Under the pieces are notes generated by a model. It saw nothing but the letters and a program-made list of their open reading frames with translations. It ran no database searches and was not told the DNA's origin. From positions 1-58,060 of the IMG/VR virus record IMGVR_UViG_3300011444_000012: DNA of 58,060 nt. The stretch is one strand, 5' to 3'. Both the position numbers and the translations under genes were made by a program. This document shows, piece after piece, positions 3,378 to 14,683 of the stretch (positions are counted from its first letter, which is position 1; the number at the start of each line of letters is the position of its first letter). Source of the DNA: a virus (Duplodnaviria > Caudoviricetes).

Positions 3378-3613
3378 TTTGGTTCTATTGTTAAACGGTT
3401 ATTTTTAAATAAGCCGACCCCGCTAAGAGTAGCTTTTAGGTTAAGATTGTTTTCTTTGATTACTCTTTGTGCTTCTTCTAGTGGGTATCCATTGCTCCAG
3501 GGGGATACGTTATATACCAATTCATCTCCAAGATCATTCAGGTTGGTAGAATAGAATTTACGCCGGAAGTCTGCTAGTGCTGCTTGTACGTCTGTTTCTT
3601 GTTCTTGTGTCAT
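3374..3613 (-). CDS. Hypothetical protein
   Basis: 79-aa ORF with ATGA overlaps on both sides. Confidence 0.7.
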   Translation of the reverse strand: MTQEQETDVQAALADFRRKFYSTNLNDLGDELVYNVSPWSNGYPLEEAQRVIKENNLNLKATLSGVGLFKNNRLTIEPK

Positions 3614-3858
3614 GCTACGTGTGGTTTATATTTTTCAGTAAGGTAATCTTTGAAGCGTACCCATAGTTCTGTTTTATCTACTGTTTGAGCATCTTCATCA
3701 AACCCATGCAATCCCATAAGGCTTACCATCATATCATTTCTATCAGTAGTAAAGATTAGGTAATCTTCGCTGCAAGCCTTTACAAATTCTTCCAATAGCT
3801 CCGCTTTAATTTCAGCATCACATGGAGCATCTATGATAGCTTTTAGTTTGTGTTTCAT
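3610..3858 (-). CDS. Hypothetical protein
   Basis: 82-aa ORF translationally coupled to the next gene. Confidence 0.7.
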   Translation of the reverse strand: MKHKLKAIIDAPCDAEIKAELLEEFVKACSEDYLIFTTDRNDMMVSLMGLHGFDEDAQTVDKTELWVRFKDYLTEKYKPHVA

Positions 3859-3877
3859 TTTGGTATCGTGTTTTTGA

Positions 3878-4084
3878 TTAAACGTTATTAACCTCTGGTT
3901 GTTGTATCATCGCTTTATATGGCATCCAATAAGTTATTGCCATGTCTTTAGAATAAGCTACAACATAGGATTCAATCAATACCGCAAGTGTTGTTTTGTC
4001 TTTTTTTGCTTTCCTCATAGCTTTTCTGTACGTCTTATCGGCTATTTTATAGCTACGTGCGTTTCTTTTTTCTTTCACTTTCAT
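3878..4084 (-). CDS. Ribbon-helix-helix-like DNA-binding protein, probably leaderless (start revised to ATG 4084)
   Basis: RSYKIADKTYRKAMRKAKKDKTTLAVLIESYV pattern; ATG lies 3 nt after TACGTTTG. Confidence 0.6.
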   Translation of the reverse strand: MKVKEKRNARSYKIADKTYRKAMRKAKKDKTTLAVLIESYVVAYSKDMAITYWMPYKAMIQQPEVNNV

Positions 4085-4087
4085 ACA

Positions 4088-4119
4088 CAAACGTAATACG
4101 TATTTCGTATTTCACCAAA
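4088..4119 (-). promoter_or_regulatory. Bacteroidetes sigma-A promoter TTTG-N20-TACGTTTG
   Basis: Exact -33/-7 consensus; TACG direct repeats in the spacer may be an operator. Confidence 0.75.
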
Positions 4120-4143
4120 TTATTTTCAATAAATATTTTTAAC

Positions 4144-4151
4144 TACCTTTG
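4144..4151 (+). promoter_or_regulatory. -7 box TACCTTTG
   Basis: Consensus TAnnTTTG ending 23 nt upstream of ATG 4175. Confidence 0.6.
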
Positions 4152-4174
4152 AAACAACTAAAAACTAACAAGCC

Positions 4175-4345
4175 ATGTCATTAGTAGCACTATTAATTTT
4201 TTTGATTATTCTGGTAGCGATCTGTTACTGCGTAGCCTTATTGCCTATTGATGTAACCTTAAAGCGAGTATTGGGTATTGTAATCTTCTTGATTGCTCTA
4301 CTTTATATATTACAGAAGTTTGGGTTGGTAAGCTATATAAATTAA
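4175..4345 (+). CDS. 56-aa two-TM membrane protein (Thivi_2564-like)
   Basis: Hand-translated MSLVALLIFLIILVAICYCVALLPIDVTLKRVLGIVIFLIALLYILQKFGLVSYIN; has its own promoter and a downstream hairpin; missing from the ORF track. Confidence 0.75.
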   Translation: MSLVALLIFLIILVAICYCVALLPIDVTLKRVLGIVIFLIALLYILQKFGLVSYIN

Positions 4346-4428
4346 AAAAGGGCTGTTATCGTAGCTAATGATAACAGCCCACACTTTTGAAACTTCGAAA
4401 GAAAACCCAATAACCTATGAATACATGA
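4344..4428 (-). ncRNA. Candidate sRNA A (~85 nt)
   Basis: TATCTTTG at 4434-4441; terminator GGGCTGTTATC/GATAACAGCCC (4350-4380) plus U6; no plausible ORF. Confidence 0.55.
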
Positions 4429-4440
4429 TGTGACAAAGAT

Positions 4441-4518
4441 AAAAAACCTGATCTATATTTTACATAGATCAGGTAAGAAATTTTCTTTAGTTATTTCTTA
4501 TGGTTTACTTGTACTAAG
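4441..4518 (-). ncRNA. Candidate sRNA B (~78 nt)
   Basis: TATATTTG at 4524-4531; terminator ACCTGATCTAT/ATAGATCAGGT (4446-4474) plus U-tract. Confidence 0.55.
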
Positions 4519-4563
4519 GACTGCAAATATACGGGATGTCGTGAAACGGGACACCCCCTAAAT

Positions 4564-4646
4564 AAAAAAGGGGAATATGAATATATCCCCCGAAAGTACC
4601 AAAACAATAATAAATAACTATTAGAGCTTATGAGTACCGCAATATT
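4564..4646 (-). ncRNA. 3'-UTR element / candidate sRNA C containing CTCATAAGCTC and a terminator
   Basis: GGGG/CCCC hairpin 4570-4591 plus U6; motif shared with 24221-24231. Confidence 0.45.
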
Positions 4647-4841
4647 TTAATTAAGCGTTATTACTTCTGAATGGTCGTTGACGAATGCGAAAGTAACTAT
4701 TTCGTCATTTCCAACAACTATATTTATTCTTGTACCATTTTCCAGGTTCTTCGCTATTTTCCAACAATCCAATAAGAAATCACTAAACTCATTCTCGGTA
4801 CAATTAAGGTCTTTGTGCGTTAGTTTTTTGGCTTGGTTCAT
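4647..4841 (-). CDS. Hypothetical protein, probably leaderless
   Basis: 64-aa ORF; TAACTTTA lies 4 nt before the ATG. Confidence 0.65.
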   Translation of the reverse strand: MNQAKKLTHKDLNCTENEFSDFLLDCWKIAKNLENGTRINIVVGNDEIVTFAFVNDHSEVITLN

Positions 4842-4855
4842 ACAATAAAGTTAAA

Positions 4856-4925
4856 CAAAATAACCTCCGAACATGAAAATGAAGGAGGTATTGACTACAT
4901 GAAGTGATTTAAACAATGAAAAACC
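4856..4925 (-). ncRNA. Candidate sRNA D (~70 nt)
   Basis: Variant -7 box TAATTTTA at 4930-4937; hairpin ACCTCC/GGAGGT followed by TATTTT. Confidence 0.35.
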
Positions 4926-4938
4926 TTCATAAAATTAC

Positions 4939-4969
4939 AAAAAAAGCAGCAAGTGAGCCTACCTACTGC
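4939..4969 (-). terminator. Intrinsic terminator
   Basis: GCAGTAGGT/ACTTGCTGC stem (G-U pairs form only on the minus strand) plus U7. Confidence 0.7.
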
Positions 4970-4992
4970 CTTAAGATGAAAAATCAAAATAC

Positions 4993-5307
4993 TTATTCAG
5001 GAATTGATATTAGCCAACTGTAGTATTTATCGGCAGTGGCTATAATATTTATTCCGCCACCTAATTGCCCTTGATTTAAAGAAGTTGCCCTTCTCATTAC
5101 CTCTGTATTGTTTTCTGCATGAGCCATTTCTAAAGCTCTCTTTCTGCAATCTTGTTTGTAACGGGCAAATTCTGTTTTCTGCTTTTGCTGTTCAACATTA
5201 ATTGTGGCTTGCTTTTGTGCTTCGGCGGGATCATAAACAGGCATTTGGTTAGATTTCCTTACTCTATTTAAATCTTCGGCTGCTTTAAAAGCATTTTGAA
5301 TACTCAT
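4993..5307 (-). CDS. Hypothetical protein
   Basis: 104-aa ORF with its own TACATTTG box (5338-5345) and terminator. Confidence 0.75.
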   Translation of the reverse strand: MSIQNAFKAAEDLNRVRKSNQMPVYDPAEAQKQATINVEQQKQKTEFARYKQDCRKRALEMAHAENNTEVMRRATSLNQGQLGGGINIIATADKYYSWLISIPE

Positions 5308-5348
5308 AAAATTTATTTTACTTTTTAATTAATACCTCAAATGTAAGC

Positions 5349-5572
5349 AAAAAAAATGCGTTACTGGTCGTAATAGTAACGCAAGTAGAAGGGTGAGGTC
5401 GCATTAAAACCAAAAACCTAACTTCCAAAAAGTTTTTCAACAACCACTATGCCAAACAATTAACTTATCGGGGGCTTTTATGCTATATATAAAATAAAAA
5501 AAAGTGTCGTAAGACTGACAGGTTATAGAAAAGAAATGTAGTTCTCGTAGCCCACAAAAAGGGCAGATACGG
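5349..5572 (-). ncRNA. Candidate sRNA E (one or two RNAs)
   Basis: TATCTTTG at 5578-5585; weak hairpin plus U8 near 5496-5520; strong terminator TGCGTTACT/AGTAACGCA (5357-5383) plus U8. Confidence 0.4.
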
Positions 5573-5994
5573 TAAGCCAAAGATAAAGTTACACATATCA
5601 AATAACCAAATAAAAAAGCCAACACTACTAAATAACTCGTTAAAGCAAAGAACAACTACATAAACCCATAAACAAAGAAATACTGTCTAGCTGTGCGTAG
5701 GTGCGGTAACGCATATTTTGCGGGTGGCCTTTTCTTTTTGGGGAATTGTGAATTTGACAGGCCGGCCATGCCTGGTTTTGCTTTTCACTTTTAGTTTGCC
5801 ATTAATGTATATACTATATTGTTGTTTGCTGTTCAGGATTGAAAGCTACTTCTATTTGGCATTTTAAAGCTGCTGTTGCCTATATAGGGGAATGATCTAT
5901 GTATTGGTATTGCTTGCGAGTAATAGTGGTACTGGTATTGAGTTATACAGGTTGTTTCCTTAAAGTAACAATAGTTTGTTACCTTCGCAACACT

Positions 5995-6195
5995 ATGAAT
6001 AGAGTTAATCAATATACTAAAGTGGACCGTTTACCATTTGGAGCTATGAACATTGAGGAATATGCAGCTAATTTAGGAGTAAGTAAGAATGCTATTTATA
6101 ACACATGGAGAAGAAAAGGTAAACTGGATGGATATGTAATAGTGGTTTTTAAAGGTTTTAATTTTGTGGTGGAAGAAGGGTGTAAGGATAAATAA
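5995..6195 (+). CDS. Small helix-turn-helix protein (start revised to 5995)
   Basis: MNIEEYAANLGVSKNAIYNTWRR HTH; TACCTTCG box just upstream. Confidence 0.7.
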   Translation: MNRVNQYTKVDRLPFGAMNIEEYAANLGVSKNAIYNTWRRKGKLDGYVIVVFKGFNFVVEEGCKDK

Positions 6196-6221
6196 AGGTA
6201 GAAAAATAACGTAACGATTTA

Positions 6222-6253
6222 TTTGGTGAGTTAGAAAAGTTACGTTACGTTTG
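6222..6253 (+). promoter_or_regulatory. Bacteroidetes sigma-A promoter TTTG-N20-TACGTTTG
   Basis: Exact consensus; overlapped by the inverted repeat TAACGTAAC/GTTACGTTA. Confidence 0.75.
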
Positions 6254-6257
6254 CAGT

Positions 6258-6530
6258 ATGAAACAATGTTTGGTATGTGGGGTTGAATTTGAGCCTAAGA
6301 ACCCGAAAGGAGTTTTTTGTTCAAATAAATGCCGCCAAAAAGAACATAGAAGCCGTGTGAATGAATTATTGGCTGAAGCAAGAAAAGGCAAGATTGTTTC
6401 GGTAAAAATTGGAAAAGCGAAAGAGCAACCCAAAGCTGAAATTAAAATAGAATCCCCGCCCAAAAAGCAGCCACCAACAGAAAGTAGGGTATATATGAAT
6501 GATGCGATTAGAAAAAAACTTGGACTTTAA
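6258..6530 (+). CDS. Zn-finger protein, probably leaderless
   Basis: CLVCG..F......FCSNKCR motif. Confidence 0.75.
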   Translation: MKQCLVCGVEFEPKNPKGVFCSNKCRQKEHRSRVNELLAEARKGKIVSVKIGKAKEQPKAEIKIESPPKKQPPTESRVYMNDAIRKKLGL

Positions 6531-10163: not shown

Positions 10164-12038
10164 TTAAAAATTTATATCGTCATGGTACGGCTTCCATTGC
10201 CTTTCCGGTTCAAACCTTATCTCTTGCGTACTACTTGCTAATAGCAGTTTTGGGTCGCATGGTATCTGTCCGGTAATAGGATCGGAAAACCTTTTCTTGC
10301 TCCAAATCATGTTTAATTCAAAACTGCCTGTTTCACCACCAGTTCTTTTGCGCTTAACCTTTTGAATGTAAATCTGAACTTCTTTGCTTGTTTTGTCTAT
10401 GTGATAGTTTGGTCTGTAATAGGAAATTATGTTATCAGCTTTGTTGCCCCACATTGCCCCACCTGCTATATCGTACATATCAACAACAGGCAATGACTTG
10501 TCAGCTTCTCTTTGCGGCTTAACAGGATGAACGATGATATTGTATGAAACATTGTTCAGTAGGGCAAATCTTTTGATATTTTTAAGAATTTCAGACAGGT
10601 ATTGATCTTCCCTTTGATACGCCTTTTGGTTGTGGTCAAGCTGATTAAACGGGTCAATCATAACTCCATCAACACCTTTCTTCATAACCAGGTATCTGAA
10701 CTTCTCATTGATAGAATTTACATCGTGTTCGTTTTCGGGGTACACGTAGTATATGTGGTTGTTAATGAAGTTTGCTGCTTCGGTATATTCATGTTCACTC
10801 ATGTTTTGCAGCCACTTCCCTGCATACATTTCGATAATATCATCGTAGAAATCATAAGCCGGATAATTTTCGGGGCTGAATATTGCCCATTTCCAACCAT
10901 CGAATATGCTTTTGGTAAGCATAAGCTGTAAAGCGAATGTTGTCTTGCCATGATTACCGTAGCCTGTAAAAAGATTTATTTCACCTTTCTTCCACCTGAA
11001 AAACTTATCCATGCAATCAAACCTAGTGGTAGGTGCTAAAACAACTCCCTGTTTGAAATTGTCAAGCATGACAGGGAATAAATCATCTACGTAGTAAACC
11101 CCATCAACGGGTATTAATTCAGAACTATTAATGCACCGGATAACCGTTTGCTTGCCCAAGTATTGCAGCACTTCGTTTAAGTCTTTGCAACGTCTTTTCA
11201 ACCCGCTATCCATTGGCACAACTTCTTCAATCGGGTAAGTTATCAACCTGCATCTTTCAACACCCAATCTTCTTACAAGTTCTTCTTTTAGTGCCTTCCC
11301 TGCCTCGTCATTATCAGTAGCAATAACAAACTCATAAATACCCATAAGCCAATCAGAACAGTTGTCAATGTACTCTAGCCTTTGGTTGCCCTTACTTGCG
11401 CCGTTAGGGACAGACAAGACAGCCCATTTAGCCATTTCTTCGTTGGTAAGTACGCCTTGTTCGTCATGCTCCAAATCCCTACCAAACCCGCTTTCGTATA
11501 CCGCCATACAGTCAAACTCACCTTCGGTTATGATAACGTACTTCTTATCCCCCATTGAACTAAGGTTATAGAAGATAATTTCAGCATCCTTAACCATTTT
11601 AAAATGCTTATTCCCTGACCTAAACTTAATATTCACCATTACGCCATCCCTGAAATACGGGAAACAAATACACCTTTCTTTTTGGTTAGATTGCGGCATA
11701 AATTCTTCTCTACCGAAAATCATAAACTTATCTACCGTTTCATGTGAAATGCCTCTTGCCTGGAAGTATTGAACAACCTTATCATTCAACTCCCTGTTTT
11801 TTAGCATATTCTGGTCAGGCTTCTCATAGTGCTTGTTGCTCTGTTTTGCGATAGATGTTCTTACATTCCCCTTCCATCCGCAGTTATGGCAATTATATTC
11901 GCCCGTAGTTACGTTTACGGATAATGGTTTATCATTCTTGTTTTTCCTACCGTCAGAACATTGCGGGCATTTCACCTTATCGCTACCTGAATGTTTTGTT
12001 AGTTTTATTCCTAAATCGGAAAGCTTATCGTAGTACAT
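10164..12038 (-). CDS. Bifunctional DNA primase-helicase (T7 gp4/Twinkle-like)
   Basis: Zn ribbon CPQC/CHNC; TOPRIM ITEGEFD and ATDNDEAG; Walker A GYGNHGKT; IDPFN. Confidence 0.93.
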   Translation of the reverse strand: MYYDKLSDLGIKLTKHSGSDKVKCPQCSDGRKNKNDKPLSVNVTTGEYNCHNCGWKGNVRTSIAKQSNKHYEKPDQNMLKNRELNDKVVQYFQARGISHETVDKFMIFGREEFMPQSNQKERCICFPYFRDGVMVNIKFRSGNKHFKMVKDAEIIFYNLSSMGDKKYVIITEGEFDCMAVYESGFGRDLEHDEQGVLTNEEMAKWAVLSVPNGASKGNQRLEYIDNCSDWLMGIYEFVIATDNDEAGKALKEELVRRLGVERCRLITYPIEEVVPMDSGLKRRCKDLNEVLQYLGKQTVIRCINSSELIPVDGVYYVDDLFPVMLDNFKQGVVLAPTTRFDCMDKFFRWKKGEINLFTGYGNHGKTTFALQLMLTKSIFDGWKWAIFSPENYPAYDFYDDIIEMYAGKWLQNMSEHEYTEAANFINNHIYYVYPENEHDVNSINEKFRYLVMKKGVDGVMIDPFNQLDHNQKAYQREDQYLSEILKNIKRFALLNNVSYNIIVHPVKPQREADKSLPVVDMYDIAGGAMWGNKADNIISYYRPNYHIDKTSKEVQIYIQKVKRKRTGGETGSFELNMIWSKKRFSDPITGQIPCDPKLLLASSTQEIRFEPERQWKPYHDDINF

Positions 12039-12986: not shown

Positions 12987-13061
12987 TTTTCAATTTGTTT
13001 ATTACACAAATGTGGGATTTTATTTTAAATAAAAAAAATAATTTATTTCCTTGAAAGATTA

Positions 13062-13092
13062 TTTGGTAATATAAAAATGTTCAATAACTTTA
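13062..13092 (+). promoter_or_regulatory. Promoter TTTG-N19-TAACTTTA
   Basis: -33 box plus variant -7 box, divergent from the Cro-like gene. Confidence 0.6.
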
Positions 13093-13096
13093 CACC

Positions 13097-13705
13097 GTTG
13101 AATGATTAATTGAAACGTTAGAGGTTCTTTTTTTAGAGTGATGTTTTTCTTTATTAAGTACAGAGGCGGTTGCTTGAGAGGTGTAACCGCCTTATTTTGA
13201 AAGTTCTTTGAATCTCATATACACAGATAGGTGTGAATCATATTCTCACCAAATACAGCGAAAGAAGCGGCAGCTTATATGCTACGAAAACGGTAACGTT
13301 AATGTGATCCGTTGACAGCTTGGAAAGCATAGAGATACAACAAGCATGGACGAGAGTAAAAAGCATTAAACGGTGAGCCACTTCGAAAAAACAAACGGGG
13401 AGTAAGATGAAAGAGGAAGCTTACTCCCTTATTTTGAAAACAAGTTCTTTAACATAGCTTCAAAGGCGATGGCGGGATAAACAAATGGGAGTATCCCTAA
13501 CGGGGTATTATATCACATCGGAGCGGCAAAGATGCCATGAATACGCACCGCCAAACTTATTCAACTGCTTTGAACGCAGCGTTGTACGTTGATGATATAA
13601 TGAGGTCAAGTTATATCACAGAGCAGTTAATGTTTGTTTTGGATTTTCTCAATAAGCAGTTTAGTTTAACAACGGGGATTGTTTTTACTCTCCCCATCCT
13701 TTTAA
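13097..13705 (+). ncRNA. Long structured non-coding leader / ncRNA array with boxA-like motifs
   Basis: About 630 nt without a long ORF; many stems; repeated hairpin-CCTTATTTTGAAA-AAGTTCTTT junctions. Confidence 0.6.
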
Positions 13706-13724: not shown

Positions 13725-14003
13725 ATGAGTTTTAAGGTCGTATGCTTAAATAAAGATGGTTGGCTTGAAGAAAAGAAGAATTGGTTTGGTAGAAAAAAAT
13801 GGGTTGATGGCGGTATGTACCCAATAAAAGATGAAATATGTACCGTAATAGAGGAATTGAGTAAGCCTGGTTTCTACTTCTTAGATGAATATGGTGATAC
13901 TTTCGAAAAAAGTCAATTTGTGCCATTAAAAAGTGATGGGCTTATCGAAGTAACTTTCGAGCAAATAAGGGAAGACTTAGGCATACCACAAGGCAAAAAC
14001 TAA
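13725..14003 (+). CDS. Hypothetical protein
   Basis: 92-aa ORF (KVVCLN...P.KDEI.TV). Confidence 0.75.
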   Translation: MSFKVVCLNKDGWLEEKKNWFGRKKWVDGGMYPIKDEICTVIEELSKPGFYFLDEYGDTFEKSQFVPLKSDGLIEVTFEQIREDLGIPQGKN

Positions 14004-14008
14004 CAGCC

Positions 14009-14230
14009 ATGCAATATATCTTAGCAGTATTACTAATCCCATTAGCCATTATGCTAATTAAAAGCAGGTGGATTCACCGGAAACACTCAAAGCTAAAAGA
14101 TGAATGGGGTGATCTACCAACTCATACCAAAGAGCAACAAGACTTCTTTAAAGGTAAGCCATCAGTAAACTTTCATGGAAGATTAATAAACATGGATGAA
14201 CACGCAGATGGTATCGTAGAAGAAAAATAA
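14009..14230 (+). CDS. Small membrane-anchored protein
   Basis: N-terminal TM segment. Confidence 0.65.
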   Translation: MQYILAVLLIPLAIMLIKSRWIHRKHSKLKDEWGDLPTHTKEQQDFFKGKPSVNFHGRLINMDEHADGIVEEK

Positions 14231-14236
14231 AACTAT

Positions 14237-14683
14237 ATGACAATATTTAAGGAATTACATAAAAGGATGGATGCTTTTGCAGAAAATATTGCTAAAGAGG
14301 TTGCTGAAAAAAGATTCTATGAAATAGAAGAAATAAAAGCTATCGCTAAGACTAGGCTATTTTGGGCAATACACGACTGCCTACAAATACAGGTTACCGA
14401 AAAGGAAAAAGAGAGAAGGGAATTGGTTGAAGCTTATGGCAAAGTAAGTGGGTCGCATAAAACAATTAAAATAGGGGTTGAGATTTCTAAAGTAAATGCC
14501 GAAAAAAAAGATGCTAACCGCCTTATGCATACTATACAAGATTATAATGAGTATGAGCAACTAAAGCATTACGTGAAAGATAAATTTGGTGAAAACGCCT
14601 TTTTTGATTTTGTTAATAATTATTTGGATCGGCAAGAAAACAGAAAAAGGAAGCCGTATAATTCTAAAGATACGGCACAATAA
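14237..14683 (+). CDS. Hypothetical protein
   Basis: 148-aa ORF. Confidence 0.7.
   Translation: MTIFKELHKRMDAFAENIAKEVAEKRFYEIEEIKAIAKTRLFWAIHDCLQIQVTEKEKERRELVEAYGKVSGSHKTIKIGVEISKVNAEKKDANRLMHTIQDYNEYEQLKHYVKDKFGENAFFDFVNNYLDRQENRKRKPYNSKDTAQ

Follow-up and report, generated by a model that had tools for sequence, protein, structure and literature searches.

The segment considered here lies on the minus strand at positions 4344-5585 of a 58,060-nt viral DNA record, the whole of which we call the window, and comprises ~1.2 kb with which one early gene block opens in a Bacteroidota-type phage. It is best read as the promoter-proximal part of a leftward early region, in a phage whose host belongs to the Bacteroidota (Flavobacteriia-like). 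Among cultured phages, those closest by primase-helicase have Tenacibaculum, Cellulophaga and Flavobacterium as hosts. A Shine-Dalgarno signal is absent from the 70 gene starts of the phage, where positions -14 to -3 seldom carry G (2-12 of 70) and often carry A, and its ordinary leaders are A-rich. The next leftward operon, also on the minus strand, has the -7 box TACGTTTG at 4095-4088, and runs from an ATG at 4084 to a gene for a YqaJ-like exonuclease (333-1004), which is followed by a terminator (305-281). ARAGORN detected no tRNA or tmRNA genes, and Rfam gave no match at gathering score in the whole window; the seven matches returned for 3800-6300 at E values up to 5 were all far under their gathering scores and are treated as noise. 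Neither strand of 5680-5800 showed any structure (z 0.4 and 1.1).

Contrary to an initial impression that the segment has no credible ORF, ORFs of 104 aa (4993-5307) and 64 aa (4647-4841) lie within it on the minus strand. The 104-aa gene represents a real gene family of unknown function, with 23 invariant columns across eight homologues; Pfam and PHROG yielded no family for the protein, and the Atlas gave no usable match by features and, by structure, only generic helical look-alikes. Its -7 box, TACATTTG (5345-5338), is followed by a 30-nt leader, and box and leader together show 82-90% DNA identity in nine of ten related loci, with a variable protein N-terminus. An intrinsic terminator lies at 4938-4972 (-10.9 kcal/mol, z -3.1). 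The cassette recurs in ten other loci in unrelated contexts and ends in a terminator in most of them; in other phages, promoter, 5´ leader and terminator thus accompany the gene. The 64-aa ORF is an orphan, matching only itself in the collection searched; five of the eight listed differences from a relative's contig fall at third codon positions, by our own count. It is preceded by a variant box, TAACTTTA (4846-4853), only 4 nt from the ATG, a near-leaderless geometry with box-to-ATG spacings of 3-4 nt that is also seen at 4095-4088 and 6246-6253. In its 3´ UTR (4564-4646) there is an extra hairpin as well as a terminator (hairpin 4591-4570, T-run 4569-4564; z -4.7). With a promoter (for the 64-aa ORF, the variant box) and a terminator of their own, both units would be ordinary protein cassettes. 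From the other side, a 56-aa gene on the plus strand (4175-4345) with its own box at 4144-4151 converges on the segment. It encodes a hydrophobic protein with two hydrophobic stretches, as judged by eye, and five distant homologues.

The terminators of this segment are clustered far beyond chance. Six of the 16 terminator-like sites in the window fall on the minus strand of 4349-5382 (1.04 kb), and the Poisson P is ~4e-7 for five alone. Four exact TAnnTTTG boxes occur on the minus strand within 4344-5585, among them those at 4441-4434, 4531-4524 and 5585-5578, to which the preliminary description had drawn attention together with a variant, TAATTTTA, at 4937-4930; these three boxes and the variant are present as described. 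The box excess over chance is mild: the three T-rich gaps contain four boxes where 1.25 are expected (2000 dinucleotide shuffles, P 0.03), and the gap that holds units A and B, described below, contains two where such shuffles predict 0.29 (P 0.03). There are no -7 boxes on the plus strand of the three gaps. Across the window the motif is depleted (55 versus 85 +/- 10), and just eight of the 55 boxes are fully intergenic, seven of them within 4088-6253. Because four of these seven precede a called start by 3-30 nt, and the other three head units A, B and C, we think that the motif is used as a promoter in 4088-6253. Related phage loci (1.06 Mb) contain 61 box-to-terminator pairs against ~37 expected, the latter figure being our own calculation from how densely 1522 boxes and 446 terminators are spread, and adjacency of box and terminator is thus weak evidence when taken alone.

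In unit A (4441-4531, minus strand), the exact box TATATTTG (4531-4524) is followed by a body that is A-rich and unstructured, and by a terminator (-14.4 kcal/mol; hairpin at 4473-4447, T-run at 4446-4441). Unit B (4344-4441, minus strand) has the exact box TATCTTTG (4441-4434), a body that is rich in U and G and likewise unstructured, and a terminator (-17.2 kcal/mol; hairpin at 4380-4350, T-run at 4349-4344). As had been noticed, the U-tract of A overlaps the box of B (TTTTTTATCTTTG). Both terminators are strong, with runs of at least six T. The predicted RNAs, ~77 nt for A (~4518-4441) and ~84 nt for B (~4428-4344), would each consist of an unstructured 5´ body of ~45 nt and the terminator hairpin: the whole units fold much better than shuffles (z -4.4 for A and -4.3 for B, with none of 200 shuffles as good), while the bodies alone stay near shuffle level (z -0.25, -1.9 kcal/mol for A; z -0.34, -3.8 kcal/mol for B). 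No ORF of at least 20 aa starts inside either unit, and the longest ATG ORF past the boxes has 3 aa. B ends at 4344 and the convergent 56-aa ORF at 4345, an overlap of 2 nt; A overlaps nothing. Neither box has a TTTG ~20 nt upstream.

It is possible, if on the unlikely side, that the A and B boxes arose by chance in T-rich DNA and produce no RNA of their own, and that the span acts as a terminator stack or insulator. Three successive terminators within 300 nt past the 64-aa gene (4591-4564, 4473-4441 and 4380-4344) would halt leftward early transcription before it ran antisense into the 56-aa gene and beyond it to the next operon. The missing TTTG at -33 fits such a role, as do the unstructured bodies without homologues and the convergent gene against which A and B run up. 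Moreover, the usual terminator tail, TTTTTTAT, found behind many terminators in this phage group, supplies the first letters of the B box at no cost, and a composition-aware P of 0.03 for two boxes in the A/B gap is not negligible. However, few boxes in the window are intergenic (eight of 55), the other intergenic ones of the region sit 3-30 nt before gene starts, and no box is found on the plus strand of these gaps. The stops are ~100-120 nt apart, and the box follows straight after the T-run, as in the terminator-promoter junctions of the coding cassettes. In Flavobacterium, the -33 element is not detectable genome-wide, according to the available part of one report (PMC7366714).

Unit C differs from A and B in its promoter (5578-5610, minus strand), which combines a TTTG (5610-5607), a 21-nt spacer and the box TATCTTTG (5585-5578). 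Neither A nor B has the TTTG that C shows at the -33 spacing, and the layout of the C promoter (T-run, ATTTGG, then box) is also found at gene-proximal promoters of related loci. The predicted transcript (5349-5572, ~220 nt) contains no ORF; the longest ORFs that overlap C (72 aa from a TTG, 37 aa from an ATG) start upstream of its box, and no homologue of the 72-aa ORF was found. A weak 4-bp hairpin followed by U8 lies at ~5518-5493, 75 nt past the 5585 box, and the first strong stop is at 5382-5349 (hairpin 5382-5357, T-run 5356-5349; -10.1 kcal/mol). A further unit, D (4853-4937, minus strand), is doubtful. It joins the variant box at 4937-4930 to a weak hairpin (4889-4861; -8.3 kcal/mol, z -0.7) and TTTTGTTT, and may simply be spacer and the 5´ region of the 64-aa gene. 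Between the end of the box and the T-run there are 77 nt in A, 84 nt in B, ~75 nt in C and ~69 nt in D; the statement that a hairpin and U-tract follow each box after 70-90 nt thus holds for their presence, but they are of uneven strength.

The position of C directly upstream of the 104-aa cassette raises the question of conditional termination. In lambdoid phages, the pR´-tR´ unit (6S RNA / StxS) has a promoter and, within ~70-200 nt, a terminator, with no ORF between them; it heads the late operon and depends on the antiterminator Q. The units described here similarly have a promoter and then a terminator without an intervening ORF, and transcription from the 5585 promoter, and perhaps from those of A and B, could run into a terminator unless a phage or host factor permits readthrough. 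The downstream early genes would then be switched by the short RNAs, or would have them as by-products. We regard both the leader mechanism and this role for the RNAs as unlikely, although comparable arrangements exist. One related locus (L003, with a primase-helicase of 58% identity) has divergent early promoters, each with a terminator within 44-55 nt and before the first gene, and a second terminator 110 nt down from the leftward promoter; another (L002) has a box, ~130 nt, a terminator and then a gene. In Pseudomonas phages, the accessible portion of an ONT-cappable-seq study reports 42 terminators inside 5´ UTRs, most of which give a dominant short RNA of <250 nt (71 nt in phiKZ); these RNAs are proposed there as ncRNA candidates with unknown functions (PMC10914365). 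They resemble our mini-units in having a terminator immediately downstream of a promoter. Those RNAs lie in 5´ UTRs and were observed as transcripts, whereas A and B are predicted and precede a convergent gene, so that there is nothing past them to switch on. Only C heads a cassette in this way, and a conserved box belonging to the 104-aa gene itself comes immediately behind the C terminator, which makes readthrough unneeded. Unlike pR´-tR´, the units are tandem and early, and no Q-like protein or antiterminator-like family was found in the 38 different ORFs scanned (~70 called).

We prefer, with a probability of roughly 45%, to view the span as a chain of self-contained early cassettes, some of which are non-coding and constitute candidate phage sRNAs. 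Each mini-unit would start at a -7 box of the host sigma-A type (TAnnTTTG) and end at an intrinsic terminator. Three units lack an ORF: C, ~220 nt long and behind the best promoter, and A and B, arranged in tandem, with the end of B meeting the convergent gene. Only D might be added to these. A, B and C stand as candidate small RNAs because they combine a host-type -7 box, the absence of an ORF and an intrinsic terminator, and A and B most likely yield a pair of short non-coding RNAs, built as base-pairing sRNAs of Bacteroides usually are, with an unstructured 5´ body and then a terminator hairpin. The array is no pure sRNA battery, since the two protein-coding cassettes are interleaved with these units. 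That the boxes fire, the positions of transcript starts and stops, and any regulatory action are inferences from signals predicted in a single record of an uncultured phage. Morons, phage genes flanked by a promoter and terminator of their own, mostly occur as single insertions in late regions. Moron-like in this sense (for the term, see the available text of PMC7067206) are the 104-aa and 64-aa units, each with promoter, small gene and terminator; in the present case, however, several cassettes follow one another where the early region begins, and some have no ORF.

What the non-coding units might do is a separate matter. The preliminary description envisaged a battery of trans-acting RNAs in which a CAU core followed by U/G-rich sequence masks the A-rich leader and AUG of host or phage mRNAs, a proposal that we find rather doubtful. 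In its favor, U makes up 42-50% of the bodies of B, C and D, unlike the A-rich ordinary leaders of this phage, and CAT occurs 15 times in the 591 nt of non-coding segments against 9.6-9.9 expected (15 being reached in 10 of 500 and 12 of 1000 shuffles). CATAA or CATAG, a motif picked after looking, occurs five times versus 0.98 expected (3 of 1000 shuffles). Further, TTTTCAT, likewise chosen after looking, is found in 9 of 39 non-redundant promoter-to-terminator bodies from related Bacteroidota-phage loci, with 1.8 +/- 1.3 expected; it is also present in 10 of 267 pre-terminator stretches lacking a box and 13 of 1067 post-box stretches lacking a terminator. There is also a precedent in GibS of B. 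thetaiotaomicron, which, in the part of the report available, acts on start regions in a phylum that does without Shine-Dalgarno sequences (PMC7366714).

Other observations count against it. The CAU core is only weakly enriched. CAT is about as frequent in the non-coding segments as on the minus strand overall (0.023 per nt). One of the proposed unit cores, CUCAUAAGC, sits in the 3´ UTR of the 64-aa gene, outside the promoter-terminator units. The body of A is A-rich (43% A), and both A and B lack TTTCAT. In four of the nine TTTTCAT units of the relatives, the CAT is the reverse of an opposite-strand ORF start (25-126 aa) and may be cis-antisense or accidental. When the phage's own 70 start regions were used as targets, none of six candidate RNA bodies outdid dinucleotide shuffles, and the masking of start codons gained no support from this comparison. 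The number of shuffles per 100 that paired as well was 57 for A, 8 for B, 49 for C1, 24 for C2, 19 for D and 66 for the 64-aa 3´ UTR, and for all six candidates mean pairing was weaker to start regions than to within-gene windows. The sole pairing above background was that of A with the coding region of the 64-aa mRNA, where 15 of 16 nt pair (-19.6 versus -12.7 +/- 2.5 kcal/mol; 1 of 60 shuffles), a value that is not significant after correction for the eight RNA-target combinations tested. The best repeat family, comprising B, D and 5683-5662, reaches 73% over 22 nt; ~100 such pairs are expected by chance, on our own estimate, and we rejected the idea of a shared core or paralogy. An extended version of this model, in which U-rich, promoter- and terminator-bounded RNAs (UUUUCAU or CAUAR facing an A-rich leader plus AUG AAA) would be broad blockers of translation initiation during host take-over, with A, B, C and perhaps D as a tandem set and the nine TTTTCAT units among the 39 as relatives in function rather than in sequence, is more speculative still and in our view improbable.

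The meeting of B with the 56-aa gene suggests another function, as a cis-antisense or type I antitoxin-like RNA with overlapping 3´ ends. The T-run of B abuts the stop codon of the 56-aa gene, the same hairpin would serve both, and the protein is small and hydrophobic. In phage lambda, OOP overlaps the cII 3´ end by tens of nucleotides, whereas B shares only 2 nt with the coding region of its neighbor and A none; host phylum and promoter type differ as well. The phage RNAs OOP (77 nt) and P22 sar (68/69 nt) are similar in format, since, like the RNAs predicted for A and B, they are early-region RNAs of ~70-80 nt with a promoter and terminator of their own; they lie next to regulatory genes, and OOP, which acts on cII mRNA, is convergent with its target gene, as set out in the accessible sections of a review (PMC12197685). 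The homologues of the 56-aa gene lie co-directionally inside operons in eight viral loci, none of which shows a convergent box-plus-terminator unit, and B pairs worse with the 56-aa mRNA than shuffles do (46 of 60 as good). We therefore consider an antisense role of B very unlikely and have rejected a type I toxin-antitoxin pair, in view of the same eight loci; a 3´ UTR overlap of B and the 56-aa gene through a shared hairpin is possible.

Hardly any probability attaches, in our judgment, to the converse explanation that the CAT triplets mark the starts of plus-strand micro-ORFs and that the non-coding appearance comes from looking at the wrong strand. The gaps are A-rich on the plus strand, resembling ordinary leaders, and a 35-aa plus-strand ORF (4916-5023) starts at the ATG opposite TTTTTCAT in D. 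But that ORF crosses the terminator hairpin and extends into the end of the 104-aa gene, the plus-strand ORFs facing the CATs in A and B comprise 5 and 3 codons, and the three gaps offer no plus-strand -7 boxes.

If A, B and C are true RNAs, they would be the first examples for Bacteroidota phages within the literature searched, in which we found no sRNA of such a phage described; the string "Bacteroid" does not occur in the available text of a 2025 review of phage-derived sRNAs (PMC12197685). A and B may also be compared with GibS-type sRNAs, with which they share a sigma-A-type promoter, an intrinsic terminator, no ORF, low GC and an unstructured 5´ part. GibS, however, is ~145 nt, chromosomal, conserved across Bacteroides and mapped experimentally, whereas A and B are ~77-84 nt, phage-borne, without a homologue found and predicted from the sequence. 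In Bacteroides, the three features that A, B and C combine (-7 box, intrinsic terminator and lack of an ORF) were used as criteria for high-confidence intergenic sRNAs, and in B. thetaiotaomicron a TSS with an intrinsic terminator marked eight of nine northern-validated intergenic sRNAs, as far as the accessible portion of that study reports (PMC7366714). True RNAs would offer a handle on early-gene regulation in the absence of Shine-Dalgarno-based translation control. For annotation, small early genes of this phage group may be treated as autonomous promoter-leader-gene-terminator cassettes, of which empty ones occur, and the region provides a compact natural set of predicted Bacteroidota promoters and strong terminators.

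Our searches for homologues of A, B and C covered sequences that include no close relative containing the region. Exact patterns from B and C had no match in two scans of viral contigs, and blastn of 3800-6300 had none in the phage collection. Against related loci, blastn of the A/B/C region gave no match or short marginal ones, and against five related phage records it gave only matches of 14-41 nt with E values of at least 6e-4. When primase-helicase relatives (L002-L081) were compared with 22 ORFs of the window, only a DUF1376 protein matched, and blastn found nothing. The possibility that A, B and C are pseudogene remnants was rejected, as tblastn of 125 ORFs from loci L082-L091 against 3800-6300 gave strong matches only for the 104-aa homologues, and no remnant of these neighbor ORFs scored better than E 0.01 in the three units. 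Contigs from four DNA runs matched 3500-6500 only as fragments of 39-241 nt and did not cover A and B (4207-4610) at 80% likeness; a 151-nt contig over 5403-5554 had one difference and one gap, and others of the same run differed by 3-15%. As these contigs may stem from more than one genome, we draw no conclusion from them. Among RNA runs, none was found to contain the stretch. Single-protein scans of viral contigs recovered none with the 104-aa, 377-aa or YqaJ-like protein, and a 104-aa profile found nothing in the five related phage records. An alignment of the 104-aa family likewise found none in viral contigs or genome contigs, but retrieved ten loci from metagenome contigs, where the single sequence alone had found none. 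In two of these loci (L082 and L090), ORF-less box-to-terminator units lie just upstream of the 104-aa homologue.

Between 4344 and 5585, the minus strand carries a closely packed series of -7 promoter boxes (TAnnTTTG) and terminators. The four boxes of the preliminary description are present on that strand as described, and a hairpin with a T-run follows each of them 69-84 nt further on. The predicted promoter of the first unit, C (TTTG at 5610-5607, a 21-nt spacer and a box at 5585-5578), precedes about 220 nt without an ORF, which include a weak 4-bp stem-loop followed by U8 around 5518-5493 and end in a strong terminator at 5382-5349. The cassette of a 104-aa protein comes next (box 5345-5338, 30-nt leader, ORF 5307-4993, terminator 4972-4938), followed by unit D, a variant box at 4937-4930 with a weak hairpin at 4889-4861 (-8.3 kcal/mol; unit fold z -0.7) that is doubtful as a genuine unit. 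A further variant box, TAACTTTA at 4853-4846, lies four bases ahead of the ATG of a 64-aa ORF (4841-4647) whose structured 3´ UTR ends in a terminator (4591-4564). Units A (box 4531-4524, an ORF-less stretch of about 77 nt, terminator 4473-4441) and B (box 4441-4434, an ORF-less stretch of about 84 nt, terminator 4380-4344) complete the series, the first T of the unit B box also being part of the unit A T-run. We propose, tentatively and with a probability of roughly 0.45, that A and B yield discrete short transcripts that function as RNAs, and that C probably does so too.

On the plus strand, a convergent 56-aa gene (4175-4345, with its own box at 4144-4151) has a stop codon that adjoins the unit B T-run. 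The next leftward operon is long, extending from a minus-strand box at 4095-4088 as far as the exonuclease gene and its closing terminator (305-281), with no further stops between. Given the dense stops inside the array and the unstopped course of this operon, the array is a separate, heavily punctuated block heading the leftward early region. The rightward block opposite opens with the gene for a helix-turn-helix (HTH) protein (5995-6195), and its early genes also include one for a zinc-ribbon protein (6258-6530).

The firmest element of the observation is how tightly the stops cluster. A uniform scan of the whole window found 16 terminator-like sites, six of them on the minus strand at 4349-5382 and five of these six with a T-run of six or more T; the Poisson probability of five clustered terminators is about 4e-7. 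The boxes are less secure: T makes up 40-49% of the three array gaps on the minus strand, and dinucleotide shuffles yield P 0.03 both for the three gaps together (4 boxes seen, 1.25 in shuffles) and for the A/B gap (2 seen, 0.29 in shuffles). Across the window, TAnnTTTG is depleted: it occurs 55 times versus 85 ± 10 in shuffles, and none of 100 shuffles has fewer copies, a pattern that would fit selection against stray promoters. Fully intergenic boxes number just 8 of the 55, with 7 of them inside 4088-6253. Were the boxes present by chance, the three stops after the 64-aa gene would form a terminator stack that shields the convergent gene and the next operon; this is the main rival to short RNAs, and we consider it possible but unlikely.

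That the array has no credible ORF, as had been stated, holds for A, B and C and fails for the span as a whole, which includes the 104-aa gene with its homologues and the 64-aa ORF. No ORF of 20 aa or more starts within A or B, where the longest ATG ORF has 3 aa; ORFs overlapping unit C start upstream of its box, and no homologue was found for a 72-aa ORF that overlaps this unit. Translated comparison with 125 ORFs of related loci found no gene remnants in the three units. Micro-ORFs on the plus strand are an unlikely explanation of the gaps, since plus-strand boxes are absent there and the ORFs opposite A and B have 3-5 codons. Unit B could also be conceived as an OOP-like or type I toxin-antitoxin RNA directed at the convergent gene, which is unlikely because the overlap with that ORF is just 2 nt and such a unit occurs in none of eight loci with homologues of the 56-aa protein.

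As short RNAs, A and B would have a simple shape. Whole-unit folds beat shuffles (z -4.4 for A, -4.3 for B) entirely on account of the terminators, the bodies that precede the hairpins being unstructured (-1.9 and -3.8 kcal/mol; z about -0.3), so each predicted product would consist of a free 5´ portion of some 45 nt and a terminator hairpin. The body of A is A-rich (43% A) and that of B U/G-rich. No Rfam family matched, no homologues of A, B or C were found in related loci, viral contigs or related phage records, and no RNA run contained the stretch; we thus infer the transcripts from their signals.

Short phage RNAs bounded by a promoter and a terminator are known, among them OOP and sar (PMC12197685) and short 5´ RNAs of phiKZ and other phages (PMC10914365), and Bacteroides has intergenic sRNAs of the same build (PMC7366714). 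In the article texts searched, no sRNA of a Bacteroidota phage is described; literature searches that took in such phages returned none, and the string "Bacteroid" does not occur in the review of phage-derived sRNAs (PMC12197685). Our finding consists of predicted signals in a single uncultured record; if real, A, B and C add to the known RNAs of this kind.

A shared CAU core had been noted in the units, together with a proposal that they mask translation starts. CAT is modestly enriched over shuffles in six non-coding segments (15 versus 9.6-9.9 expected), at a rate that equals that of the whole minus strand. CATAA/CATAG, picked after seeing the data, occurs 5 times versus 0.98 expected (3 of 1000 shuffles). 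Among related loci, 9 of 39 non-redundant box-to-terminator bodies contain TTTTCAT (shuffles 1.8 ± 1.3), as do 10 of 267 box-less stretches before terminators and 13 of 1067 terminator-less stretches after boxes. For four of the nine units the CAT of this motif is the reverse of an opposite-strand ORF start (25-126 aa), and for the other five the opposite ORF has 4-14 codons. TTTCAT is absent from both A and B.

Start masking found no support among the phage's own mRNAs. Against 70 start windows (-30 to +15; 100 dinucleotide shuffles per test), the six bodies pair at shuffle level in both best and mean duplex energies, with 8 to 66 of 100 shuffles equalling them, and mean pairing is weaker for start windows than for windows inside genes. 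Two of eight local RNA-mRNA combinations stand out, A with the 64-aa mRNA (-19.6 versus -12.7 ± 2.5, 1/60; 15 of 16 nt match at 4787-4772) and B with the start of the next operon (2/60), and both fail correction for eight tests. Even if the short RNAs exist, we regard this mechanism as unlikely.

The 104-aa ORF is, on sequence grounds, a real gene. Its product is matched by eight other proteins (E 2e-19 to 2e-7), with 23 invariant alignment columns in two blocks, and belongs to no Pfam or PHROG family. Homologues are encoded in ten metagenomic loci (L082-L091), in nine of which 31-50 nt upstream of the start codon match the window at 82-90% identity (blastn); the N-terminus of the protein is not conserved, unlike this upstream DNA. 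From box to ATG, 19 columns are invariant in a nine-sequence alignment, and they include a TATTAATTAA core and TTTTATG; the DNA compared spans 5299-5367 (minus strand) in the window. The box and its leader, about 30 nt long, might act as an operator or as a site of control at the RNA level, carried along with the cassette, and a terminator closes most of the homologous cassettes.

No relative of the 64-aa ORF was found in the collection searched. Its flanking promoter-like box and terminator, and differences from a related contig that fall at third codon positions in five of eight listed cases (own count), weakly suggest that it is coding. A 264-nt contig of DNA sequencing run X4 aligns with 4761-4854 at 14 differences and with 4852-4925 at 1, some 96 extra bases separating the two parts, so that this relative has an insertion just ahead of the ORF (around 4852-4854). 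The boxes at 4088-4095, 6246-6253 and 4846-4853 end just 3-4 nt ahead of an ATG, implying leaderless or nearly leaderless mRNAs; these are rare in Bacteroides, in which 5´ UTRs shorter than 10 nt make up about 3.7% of the total (PMC7366714).

Possible operators lie nearby. A perfect 7-bp inverted repeat (GTAACAATAGTTTGTTAC, 5965-5982) is located just ahead of the likely start of the HTH gene (5995). GTAACG/CGTTAC half-sites flank the box at 6246 (6196-6252) and build the stem of the terminator at 5382-5357 (5359-5381), position 5706 belongs to the same set, and 6 of the 22 such hexamers in the window fall within 5158-6248. They are putative operators of the HTH protein, and the terminator at 5382-5357 may double as a binding site. 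A relatively GC-rich island (5690-5796, plus strand, up to 47% GC) has hairpins with T-runs at 5690-5737 and 5755-5796 and no plus-strand -7 box upstream; its fold is not better than shuffles, and the second hairpin has at least seven differences in a related contig.

The 58-kb virus record lacks end repeats and has an estimated completeness of 79%; 70 non-overlapping ORFs in the standard code cover 93% of the window. They include genes for a YqaJ-like exonuclease (333-1004), a primase-helicase (10164-12038), an MT-A70 methylase, and glycosyl- and methyltransferases. The very large proteins encoded towards the right are presumed to be structural, purely from size and position. By primase-helicase, the closest cultured phages (27-35% identity) infect Tenacibaculum, Cellulophaga and Flavobacterium. 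Sequence before start codons in the window is A-rich with G nearly absent, hence without a Shine-Dalgarno signal, and several gene starts have a TAnnTTTG box 3-30 nt upstream. Together these features point to a host in the Bacteroidota, probably of the class Flavobacteriia. The full stretch is present in one run only, a freshwater-sediment metagenome that may be the source of the record. A further long gap in which no ORF was called (12987-13536, 550 nt) separates leftward replication genes from rightward genes, and terminator scans found none in it.

Relatives show comparable layouts. ORF-less box-to-terminator units lie directly upstream of the 104-aa homologue in two loci (L082 and L090). 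In L003, a relative by primase-helicase, a terminator follows within 44-55 nt of both divergent early promoters, and downstream of the leftward promoter there is also a second stop, followed by some 300 nt of non-coding DNA rich in G and T. This arrangement suggests conditional termination at promoter-proximal stops, which have been mapped in Pseudomonas phages (PMC10914365); as an account of the array we find it improbable, less so for C alone. The same L003 region (13990-14440, minus strand) has two or three terminators, and its G/T-rich DNA repeats a GTTGCGGGAAGT-like motif; these iteron-like repeats are possibly an origin of replication.

For short RNAs such as A and B, box-to-terminator pairing in itself is a weak guide. 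Related loci totalling 1.06 Mb contain 61 such pairs, just 1.6-fold or so above the 37 or so that we calculate from box and terminator densities (1522 boxes, 446 terminators), and many of the pairs sit within long open frames and are probably accidental. A unit of this kind recurs shortly past the primase-helicase gene in several marine relatives (L024 at 12112, L026 at 2885, L029 at 7562, L030 at 7998, and others), with the same spacing (78-80 nt from box to T-run) and the same terminator energy; it is a candidate conserved short RNA that offers better comparative material than the units of the window.
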